Shown: positions 14,737-16,191 of the stretch, piece after piece
Layout: the number at the start of each line of letters is the position of its first letter
Numbering within the stretch: position 1 is the first letter of the stretch
Assembly (NCBI GenBank): GCA_963798915.1
Contig: CAWCVB010000007.1
Coordinates: 96,001-160,000 of the forward strand
From: an uncultured Gemmatimonadales bacterium
Lineage (GTDB): Bacteria; Gemmatimonadota; Gemmatimonadetes; Gemmatimonadales; GWC2-71-9
Length of the DNA stretch: 64,000 nt
Direction of reading: 5' to 3'
Notes under the pieces: model-generated
Told to the model about the DNA's origin: nothing
Database searches by the model: none
What the model saw: only the letters and a program-made list of their open reading frames with translations
Position numbers and translations under genes: made by a program

Positions 14737-14829
14737 TTCGCCCTACAGTGTGAAGTCGTAGTAGCGAGATTCTCGCCTGTACCACGGCACGATCTCCGCT
14801 ACCGAGAGCCCGTTCGAGTGTGCCGCCCT

Positions 14830-15003
14830 TGTATCTCTAGATCTGACGTTTGCGGTAACTTCTGGATAGGGTGGTAACCCGTTGCGCCTAGGGGCCTCGA
14901 GCCCGTTCGTTAGCCTTGTATCTCTAGATCTGACGTTTGCGGTAACTTCTGGATAGGGTGGTAACCCGTTGCGCCTAGGGGCCTCGAGCCCGTTCGTTAG
15001 CCT
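14830..15003 (+). repeat. Exact 87-bp tandem duplication of the IS110 left end
   Basis: 14830-14916 equals 14917-15003. Confidence 0.95.
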
Positions 15004-15090
15004 GGGTGCCACCCGTCGTTGATCGTCGAGAGCCCGAACAGTTGCCGGGGGATCCACCCCGCATCACGCAAGGCCGGGCCACGCCGATCG
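14925..15090 (+). ncRNA. Putative bridge RNA with target-binding and donor-binding loops (ends approximate)
   Basis: Stem GGGTGGTAACC/GGGTGCCACCC encloses GTTGCGCCT and TCGTTAG; stem GCCCG/CGGGC encloses ACAGTTGC and GCAAG, matching the element's own ends. Confidence 0.8.
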
Positions 15091-15111
15091 TTCCCCTGGA
15101 GGGAGGCGCCC

Positions 15112-16044
15112 ATGGACCACTTCATCGGCATTGATGTCGCCAAGGCGACGCTCGACATCGCCTCCCTCCCCGACGGGGAGAGCTGGAGCGTCACCAATGA
15201 CGAGCACGGCCTGGCCGAGCTTGCCCCACGCCTCATCGCCCTCGCCCCGAGCCTCATTGTCCTGGAGGCCACCGGGGGCTTTGAGTTCCTCGCCGCCATC
15301 ACCTTGGCGAAGGCCGGCCTGCCCGTGGCTGTCGTGAATCCCCGTCAGGTCCGCGATTTCGCCAAAGCCTTGGGGCGCCTCGCCAAGACCGATGCCCTCG
15401 ACGCGGCCATCCTCGCGGACTTTGCCCAGCGGATTCGCCCGGAGCCCCGCGCGCTGCCGGATGAAGCGGCGCAGCTGCTCGAAAGCCTACTGACACGCCG
15501 TCGGCAGATCGTCGAGATGCTGACCGCGGAGAAGAACCGGCTGGGCTTTGCCCGGGGCCCGGTCAAGCGCGATATCAGCCAGCACATTCGCTGGCTCGAG
15601 AAGCGGCTGGCCGACGTCAACGGCGACCTGCAGGAGGCCGTCGCGGCGAGTCCGCTGTATCGAGCCAAGGCCGAGCTCCTGACCAGCGTACCCGGCGTCG
15701 GGCAGGTCACGACGCTCACGCTCCTGGCCACCCTCCCTGAACTCGGTCAGCTCTCACGTCACCAGATCGCGGCGCTCGTCGGCGTGGCGCCCATGAATCG
15801 GGATAGCGGCACGATGCGCGGCAAACGGATGGTCTGGGGCGGCCGGGCACCCGTGCGGGCGGTGCTCTATATGGCGACCCTCGTTGGCATCAAGCACAAC
15901 CCCGTGCTCCGAGCCTTCTACGCGCGGCTCCGGGCCGCCGGGAAGCCCTTCAAGGTCGCCGCCACAGCCTGCATGCGAAAGCTGCTCACGATCCTCAACG
16001 CGATGCTCACGCACAACCGCCGGTGGAACGCAGAACACGCTTGA
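15112..16044 (+). CDS. IS110-family DEDD recombinase/transposase (310 aa)
   Basis: GIDVAK, LEATGG, KTDALDA (DEDD) and RDSG serine motif; GGAGG RBS. Confidence 0.95.
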
Positions 16045-16058
16045 CTTTCGAGACAGTT

Positions 16059-16191
16059 GCTAACGACCGGCGCTTCAGCGGCGGGGCGGTCACCCTCACA
16101 GCAACCAAAGTTCATTCTCGGCCAACCCGATGGCCGCAGCGCAGGGAATTCCGGCGGACGGCCGCCCGCCAGCTGCAAGCGCGGGTTAGCC
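16059..16191 (-). other. attC: attC site carrying the IS110 insertion in R'
   Basis: gctaac..gcgcttcagc / gctgcaagcgc..gttagcc. Confidence 0.88.

Follow-up and report, generated by a model that had tools for sequence, protein, structure and literature searches.

How an insertion sequence (IS) of the IS110 family comes to lie within an integron attC site, and whether an RNA encoded in its own left end could have directed it there, is the question raised by a 64,000-nucleotide stretch of DNA (hereafter the window) from an uncultured Gemmatimonadales bacterium (GenBank assembly GCA_963798915.1, contig CAWCVB010000007.1, positions 96,001 to 160,000 of the forward strand). The source assembly comprises 3.3 Mb in 17 contigs and is 84.8% complete. 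A first inspection of the sequence (the original prediction) had proposed a natural RNA-guided recombinase aimed at integron recombination sites. Comparison with relatives supports this proposal, with the mechanism drawn from homology with IS621: we consider, at a probability of roughly 85%, that the window carries an intact IS110-group element of Gemmatimonadales whose predicted bridge RNA reads one end box of attC. The case is carried by the anatomy of the element, by the conserved fold of its left end, by the covariation of its guides with both target and donor, and by the attC context of the insertions. By analogy with characterised members of the family, the RNA would be made, would bind the recombinase and would direct recombination.

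Anatomy of the element and its predicted bridge RNA

The element proper spans positions 14830-16059 and, like all of its parts described here, lies on the plus strand. It is flanked by the dinucleotide CT at 14828-14829 and at 16060-16061. The original prediction had given a span of 14821-16070, which contains the element but is wider than the element proper with its right core; the CT on either side of the recombinase, and the positions given for all named features, were confirmed. The left core joins the left half of the target to the element, and CT before TGTAT also occurs in homologous loci and in a 97% identical copy with a single, unduplicated leader on contig C2 (L002); the right core was read from the sequence. 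Both junctions carry the identical core with no target duplication beyond CT, as is also the case in L002. The non-coding left end measures 195 nt (282 nt with a duplication discussed below) vs. 15 nt for the right end (16045-16059), which is conserved across relatives and closes with the left donor half ACAGTTG (16053-16059). No terminal inverted repeats were found between the first 45 nt and the reverse complement of the last 45 nt, the best local match being a non-terminal one of 8/9 bases with a gap. A long left end, a short right end and a lack of subterminal inverted repeats are the layout of the IS110 group (PMC11208160), and the element, judged by its sequence, belongs to this group and not to the IS1111 group. 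By analogy with IS621 it would move as a circle, the joined ends forming the donor site ACAGTTG-CT-TGTATCT. A −35-like TTGACT at 16041-16046 overlaps the stop codon; across the circle junction, by eye only, this TTGACT is followed after 17 nt by TATCTC, and Nitrospira relatives, likewise by eye, read TTGACA, 17 nt, TATCTT.

The gene at 15112-16044 encodes an intact IS110-family DEDD/Ser recombinase of 310 aa, in agreement with the original prediction. Both domains of the family exceeded the curated Pfam cut-offs (PF01548, DEDD_Tnp_IS110, 87.2 bits, E 1.3e-24; PF02371, Transposase_20, 69 bits, E 4.7e-19), and the similarity runs over the full length, residues 3-299 matching the transposases of ISCro4 (9t56, E 1.9e-42) and IS621 (8wt6, E 1.2e-37). 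The catalytic-type residues D8, E52, D94, D97 and S232 stand within conserved motifs that align with ISCro4; the equivalent catalytic residues of IS621 are named in PMC11208158. The nearest relatives in a plasmid search were at most 59% identical and carried generic names only, none of which supplied a name in the ISfinder style.

Relatives were collected by scanning one genome per species, which yielded 227 stretches, and the best 80 were kept. Among these, all relatives at 73-100% identity came from Gemmatimonadales assemblies, and those at 56-67% mostly from Nitrospira, plus assorted other phyla. For the left-end alignment identical sequences were collapsed and nine loci were excluded (no left end, or one longer than 230 nt), leaving 61 distinct sequences. 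This alignment, together with a structure test, supports a complete left end of 195 nt at 14917-15111 that encodes the predicted bridge RNA.

The predicted RNA folds into two loops. The target-binding loop (14956-15014; helices 1 and 2) stands on a basal stem (14956-14967 with 15004-15014) and holds the left target guide (LTG) GTTGCGCCT (GTTGCGC-CT, 14968-14976), a distal hairpin (14979-14991), the right target guide (RTG) TCGTTAG (TCGTT-AG, 14994-15000) and the handshake positions CC (15001-15002), assigned by the rule of PMC11208158. The donor-binding loop (15032-15079; helices 3-5) is closed by the stem GCCCG (15032-15036) with CGGGC (15075-15079) and holds the left donor guide (LDG) ACAGTTG-CC (15038-15046, with ACAGTTGC at 15038-15045), a distal hairpin (15047-15060), the side of the right donor guide (RDG; 15061-15072, ending in GCAAG at 15068-15072) and the handshake positions GC (15073-15074). 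Over the 61 distinct left ends, 97.8% of the cells in the 24 pairs of the five helices were paired, and compensatory change on both sides was observed in 14 of the 24 pairs. The observed values were reached by none of 500 shuffles on each of five measures, and pairing fell to 34-52% when the 3′ partners were slid by 1-3 columns. The covariation supports the two internal loops that had been proposed for the left end.

Guide pairing and the attC target

According to the rule reported for IS110 elements, the LTG repeats the top strand of the left target and the core, and the RTG is complementary to the core and the right target (PMC11208160). The RTG of the window and the right flank CTAACGA are exact reverse complements (7/7); the chance odds of one 7-mer match in a 195-nt leader are about 1 in 100. 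The match goes beyond chance because guide and target covary throughout the family. Among 62 insertions with both flanks, falling into 20 guide classes, the five bases after the core matched the right guide at 5/5 positions in 49, at 4/5 in 7 and at fewer in 6, with a mean of 4.65 vs. 1.76 for cross-class pairs. Within the Gemmatimonadales clade the fifth base shifts together with the guide, the guide and flank pairs including TCGTTAG with CTAACGA, GCGTTAG with CTAACGC, CCGTTAG with CTAACGG and TTGTTAG with CTAACAA. The claim that the RTG reads the insertion site is thereby borne out in the window, and the covariation with targets that the original prediction had proposed to tabulate among homologs is found across the family. 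One Gemmatimonadales assembly holds four elements (L019-L022) whose protein is 86% identical to that of the window and whose right guide has switched to ACCCTAG; in 3/4 copies this lineage sits at CTAGGGT (GC-CT-AGGGT), at sites without attC features. The left guide of L022 carries a small deletion.

The donor loop matches the element ends, as had been predicted: the LDG ACAGTTG is identical to the element's right end, and LDGs of relatives vary together with their right ends (ACAGTCG, ACAATCG, ACAATTG, ACGGTTG and ACAGGTG variants). The RDG GCAAG is complementary to CTTGC; the element end reads CTTGT. The first handshake base of the donor loop was complementary to target position −1 in 64/71 loci, mostly via an invariant G:C pair, and the handshake positions fit the rule described for IS621 (PMC11208158).

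At the target itself, the left bases of the interrupted attC box lie at 14826-14829 and the remainder of the site at 16060-16191, with the near arm CT-AACGACCGGCGCTTCAGCGG... and the far arm ...CCAGCTGCAAGCGCGGGTTAGCC. The inverted-repeat partner score of this remainder was 30, and none of 200 shuffles scored as high. Rejoined, the site reads CCCTAAC ... GTTAGCC, the two boxes standing 130 nt apart with an imperfect palindrome between them. The original prediction held that joining the flanks restores an attC core; the partner box (GTTAGCC, one position off GTTRRRY) and the palindrome are real, but the box CCCTAAC departs from the canonical RYYYAAC at two positions. Rejoining L002 gives the canonical GCCTAAC ... 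GTTAGGC (GCCTAACGA site). Sites of the same polarity in the window lie at 4840-4953, 7015-7106, 13365-13455, 16060-16191, 16759-16875 and 20978-21105, separated by short cassettes, and a genome-wide scan found such attC-like sites in three places only, on contigs C7, C2 and C13. Every right junction in the genome reads ACAGTTG-CT-AACG followed by attC-like DNA; these are the junctions of the window, of L002, of a 5′-truncated copy on C7 whose right half is 100% identical (L003), and of a decayed right end at window positions 20904-20979.

The association extends to the attC-context clade, defined as Gemmatimonadales relatives in which the core is followed by AAC or AAT. Under a strict fold test, full attC was recovered in 11/25 right flanks of this clade vs. 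0/41 flanks of elements with other guides, and an inverted-repeat rule marked 17/29 vs. 0/45 as attC-like. By at least one of the two tests, 19/29 clade insertions adjoin an attC-like palindrome, so that most insertions of the same-guide clade, and none of those examined with other guides, lie at attC-like sites, as the original prediction implied. Four insertions (L003, L033, L041 and L043) fail both rules and by eye appear to be derived from attC.

The two arms of attC differ after CTAAC, and CTAACG is confined to near arms (6/7 sites on C7, vs. 0/9 far arms), indicating that the guide selects one end and one orientation; insertion occurs in attC at a fixed place and in a fixed orientation. 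The textbook attC model was used to assign the strand and the R′ end. Between 11.6 and 24.6 kb, every cassette gene with Pfam support is on the minus strand, single-base bulges fall on the far arm of the plus strand (two attC sites aligned by eye, 13365-13455 and 16060-16191), and the only remnant of an integron integrase (23614-23865), on the minus strand like the cassettes, closes the array on the right. Taken together, these features would make the plus strand the bottom strand of attC. Under this model the occupied box is probably R′, the cassette-junction end, two bases from the integrase crossover point. With the element inserted, the box reads GTTAGCA on the cassette strand. The orientation of cassette open reading frames (ORFs) at 20 related loci, scored by a rule of longest ORF and third-position GC content (GC3), was equivocal (right flank 7 plus and 4 minus; left flank 6 plus and 5 minus). 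The integrase remnant corresponds to the C-terminal quarter of the protein (TIGR02249 positions 229-314, 125 bits, below the cut-off); a full intI was not found in the 84.8%-complete assembly, and the array extends over about 45 kb (about 77-121 kb of C7). An isochorismatase gene lies upstream of the remnant.

Further traces of the element were recorded in this genome and in sequencing runs. Two decayed left ends (window 24630-24745, and about 1508-1620 of L004) come from a related element (78-83% identical); both are cut shortly after the target-binding loop, and CG replaces AG at the RTG positions that pair with the core. Soil and groundwater assemblies (runs X1, X2, X4 and X5) carry the element at ≥99% identity, with T at position 15914 in all four runs vs. 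C in the window. Beyond the right end (16060-16089) and CTAAC or CTAACGACC, their contigs continue into at least three distinct flanks, indicating that the element occupies several sites in nature. A scan of metagenomes with the right-end pattern recovered the whole wider family and was uninformative on attC frequency (71 distinct 5-mers in 80 loci, of which AAC-type sites were only 5).

Other genes of the array were noted in passing. A BrnT/BrnA toxin-antitoxin pair forms one cassette on the minus strand (16186-16709), the BrnA stop codon TAA lying inside the attC box, and an ORF of the ParE toxin family stands at 19034-19474. A cassette of the beta-lactamase family is bracketed by a 14-nt inverted repeat (13449-13462, plus strand; 14817-14829, minus strand) that reads GTTAGGCGGCACAC, with its complement at the other side carrying one extra C, and that reaches past the attC boxes. 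The array also holds other mobile-element genes, namely an rve-type integrase/transposase at 5771-6928 and a fragment with a Y2_Tnp match at 7554-8327. Rfam miRNA matches at the neighbouring attC hairpin (16756-16870) were put down to chance.

Duplicated left ends and competing explanations

The original prediction described the features of the left end correctly but overlooked that the left end carries an exact tandem duplication of its first 87 bp, counted with the core (14827-14913 and 14914-15000, 100% identical). Owing to this duplication, the complete leader is the inner copy described above (14917-15111). The outer, partial copy (14830-14916) holds a 5′ stem-loop, the 5′ strand of the target-loop stem, an LTG, a distal hairpin and an RTG, and ends in ...TTAGC-CT. 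One border of the duplication coincides exactly with the left terminus of the element, and the other with the internal ...TTAGC-CT that directly follows the right guide. The duplication is lacking in L002 and in L017, an element of another assembly whose protein match is 100% identical. A single-sequence fold of the duplicated leader was not better than shuffles (z 0.36), and neither the duplication nor the circle junction was seen in any sequencing run, where contigs stop at the element borders.

Duplications anchored at an element end were also found elsewhere. L020 and L021 share an exact 60-bp duplication of the left end (1242-1364 in L020), the same one at two different sites; on the inner side it stops at the CT of the left guide that these copies carry, and GTTCCGC-CT-AGGGG at this point forms a near-perfect self-target for the retargeted RNA. 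In an IS1111-like neighbour of L002 (L015, described in the next section), a 209-bp tandem duplication (2.0 copies, 99% matched) takes up, as judged by eye, the greater part of the long non-coding right end. Finding three such end-anchored duplications implicates the recombinase rather than replication slippage. The likeliest origin of the 87-bp duplication is a side reaction in which the recombinase joined the left end to an internal ..GC-CT site; this could have proceeded by integration of one copy in another with subsequent homologous deletion, or by unequal exchange between sister copies. Self-insertion by normal targeting is an unlikely source of it, the internal site CGTTAGC-CT-GGGTG matching the guides at only 3/7 positions on the left and 0/5 on the right. 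Recombination on half-matched sites is reported for IS621 in a preprint (10.64898/2026.08.31.748434), and ISPpu9 is described as having several circle forms and repeated modules at its ends (PMC12288879).

Several observations weigh against an active bridge RNA that reads attC. The duplicated leader may misfold, and this copy might be impaired. The conserved two-loop fold stands by covariation, but folding the left end as a single sequence gave no improvement over shuffles (z 0.56) and no Rfam family was found in it (scan of 14000-17000, E up to 1); as the one is uninformative and the other wanting, the structure draws its support from covariation. A promoter scan of 14700-16200 returned 0 sites, that is, no sigma-70-like promoter in the integrated copy. 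Coverage of the element by a soil metatranscriptome (X5) consists of contigs only, possibly from DNA carry-over; these cover 14914-15518 and 15569-16089 and, as contigs, cannot give transcription, strand or ends. Six of the 29 clade insertions lack an attC partner (L023, L026, L027, L039, L073 and L017, the last weakly attC-like), and the relatives are not independent, so that the counts overstate the number of events. Finally, the LTG of the window matches its left flank at 1/7 positions beyond the core, and over 25 attC-type insertions the frequency of LTG matches from −7 to −1 was 0.16, 0.12, 0.20, 0.48, 0.48, 0.88 and 0.80, hence only 0.12-0.20 at positions −7 to −5.

The partial match of the left guide, which the original prediction had entered as a caveat, is real and clade-wide, with a match above background only at −1 to −4 (68/104 vs. 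56.8 expected by permutation within the clade, p 0.003). Most IS110 elements are reported with 0-2 guide mismatches (PMC11208160), from which the left guide of this clade departs. With matching confined to the last two to four bases, the sequence read is approximately GC-CT-AACGA. A left-end bridge RNA of about 180 nt would, on our reading, steer the serine/DEDD recombinase, its donor loop reading the element's own ends and its target loop reading GC-CT-AACGA, made up of one attC end box in the chromosomal integrons of this lineage and the initial bases of the arm next to it. Recognition would be lopsided, the right guide and core contributing seven base pairs and the left guide its last two to four bases. 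Such partial use of the left guide would be understandable with the left half of the target falling beyond the cassette boundary, since the cassette DNA past the box is variable.

Among other explanations, it is unlikely, yet to be taken seriously, that this copy is dead or crippled and that nothing functions now. The 87-bp duplication offers alternative pairings for the target-loop stem, and several decayed fragments of the same family lie nearby; against this, an intact ORF encodes a protein 100% identical to that of L017, a complete inner left end is retained, and the 60-bp duplication shared by L020 and L021 at two sites implies that a duplicated leader need not block movement. It is rather improbable that the guide specifies just a short motif of about 9 bp, the association with attC being incidental and the element not adapted to integrons. 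The stretch that is read amounts to only 7-11 bp, the genome contains CTAACGA 35 times, with many of these sites outside arrays, some clade insertions are outside attC, and the targets of the wider family are very numerous and unrelated (71 distinct 5-mers in 80 loci). However, the CT-AACGN guide has been kept from 100% down to about 59% protein identity (L061, L082) while the leader changed in other places, the guide tells the two attC arms apart, and all junctions in this genome, old relics included, are within arrays. That the protein finds its target by recognising the attC hairpin or cruciform, with the guide match secondary or vestigial, is very improbable: attC targets are palindromes that form structures, most of the left guide finds no match and a preprint on the IS110 element ISPpu10 reports a requirement for sequence plus structure (10.64898/2026.03.19.712850), but the right guide shifts with the flank in 20 classes, including the close relative at CTAGGGT without attC features, and the insertions of L027, L039 and L073 lie outside any palindrome.

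With an RNA that reads one attC end box as the preferred explanation, a further step may be considered, about which we are more doubtful than confident. The lineage may have evolved a one-sided guide that reads the conserved attC arm by RTG and core and only two to four bases past the cassette boundary, where the sequence is unpredictable, a half-match being its normal mode, and the laxity on the left may have caused duplications by self-recombination three independent times.

Relation to known systems and significance

Targeting of attC by IS110-family elements has reportedly been ascribed to the IS1111 group since 2008-2009. One integron survey places attC-invading IS110-family transposases in this group (PMC11089894), and for ISKpn4 and ISPst6 a copurified seekRNA with two short matches to the attC target was described in 2024 (PMC11187229). 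The novelty that the original prediction attached to RNA-guided attC targeting was therefore overstated, such targeting having already been published for the IS1111 group in that source. The attC-targeting members of that group (ISKpn4, ISPst6, ISPa25 and ISPa21) share with the present element a DEDD/Ser transposase, the use of one attC end and a fixed orientation; they differ in that their RNA is encoded downstream, in a long right end, and in having subterminal inverted repeats, whereas here the RNA lies upstream and no such repeats occur. In the literature searched, no IS110-group element with a left-end guide was found to target attC, and the supplements of the bridge-RNA papers may list such targets.

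The closest characterised systems, IS621 and ISCro4, have a protein of the same family over its full length, a long left and a short right end, a CT core, a target loop followed by a donor loop, and the same strand rule for LTG and RTG (PMC11208160). Here, unlike in those systems, the target is an attC box, and the left guide contributes two to four bases and the right guide five beyond the core. ISPpu9 and ISPpu10, IS110-family elements of Pseudomonas putida, also target structured palindromic repeats; these are repetitive extragenic palindromic (REP) sequences and not attC. The repeated end module of ISPpu9 is a separate small RNA (sRNA) module, whereas the repeat here is a plain tandem one.

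The IS1111-like element L015 (G000:C2:508579-512013) lies 1.4 kb from L002 and occupies about 886-1965 (minus strand) and 472-891 of its locus. Its protein of 359 aa is 25% identical to the window recombinase; the left end of the element is short and the right end long. Its insertion point lies within the opposite box of another attC site, only a few bases in.

These results leave the current understanding of how such elements work unaltered. What is notable is the convergence with the attC-targeting IS1111 group, the one-sided use of the guide and the footprints of self-recombination. Both branches of the IS110 family have reached attC as a landing place, with the guide RNA before the recombinase gene in one and behind it in the other, and both are present in this genome at opposite attC ends. 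If a one-sided guide has indeed evolved in this lineage, half-match recognition would be a normal targeting mode of natural bridge recombinases and not just an off-target error. Among the relatives, nature has provided a series of reprogrammed guides, one of them in a close relative that moved to a non-attC site, and the natural asymmetry in guide use bears on how much left-side pairing is needed and hence on the specificity of bridge editors. For integron biology, the finding adds an element, abundant in soil, that interrupts the cassette-junction box and may thereby affect the mobility of cassettes.

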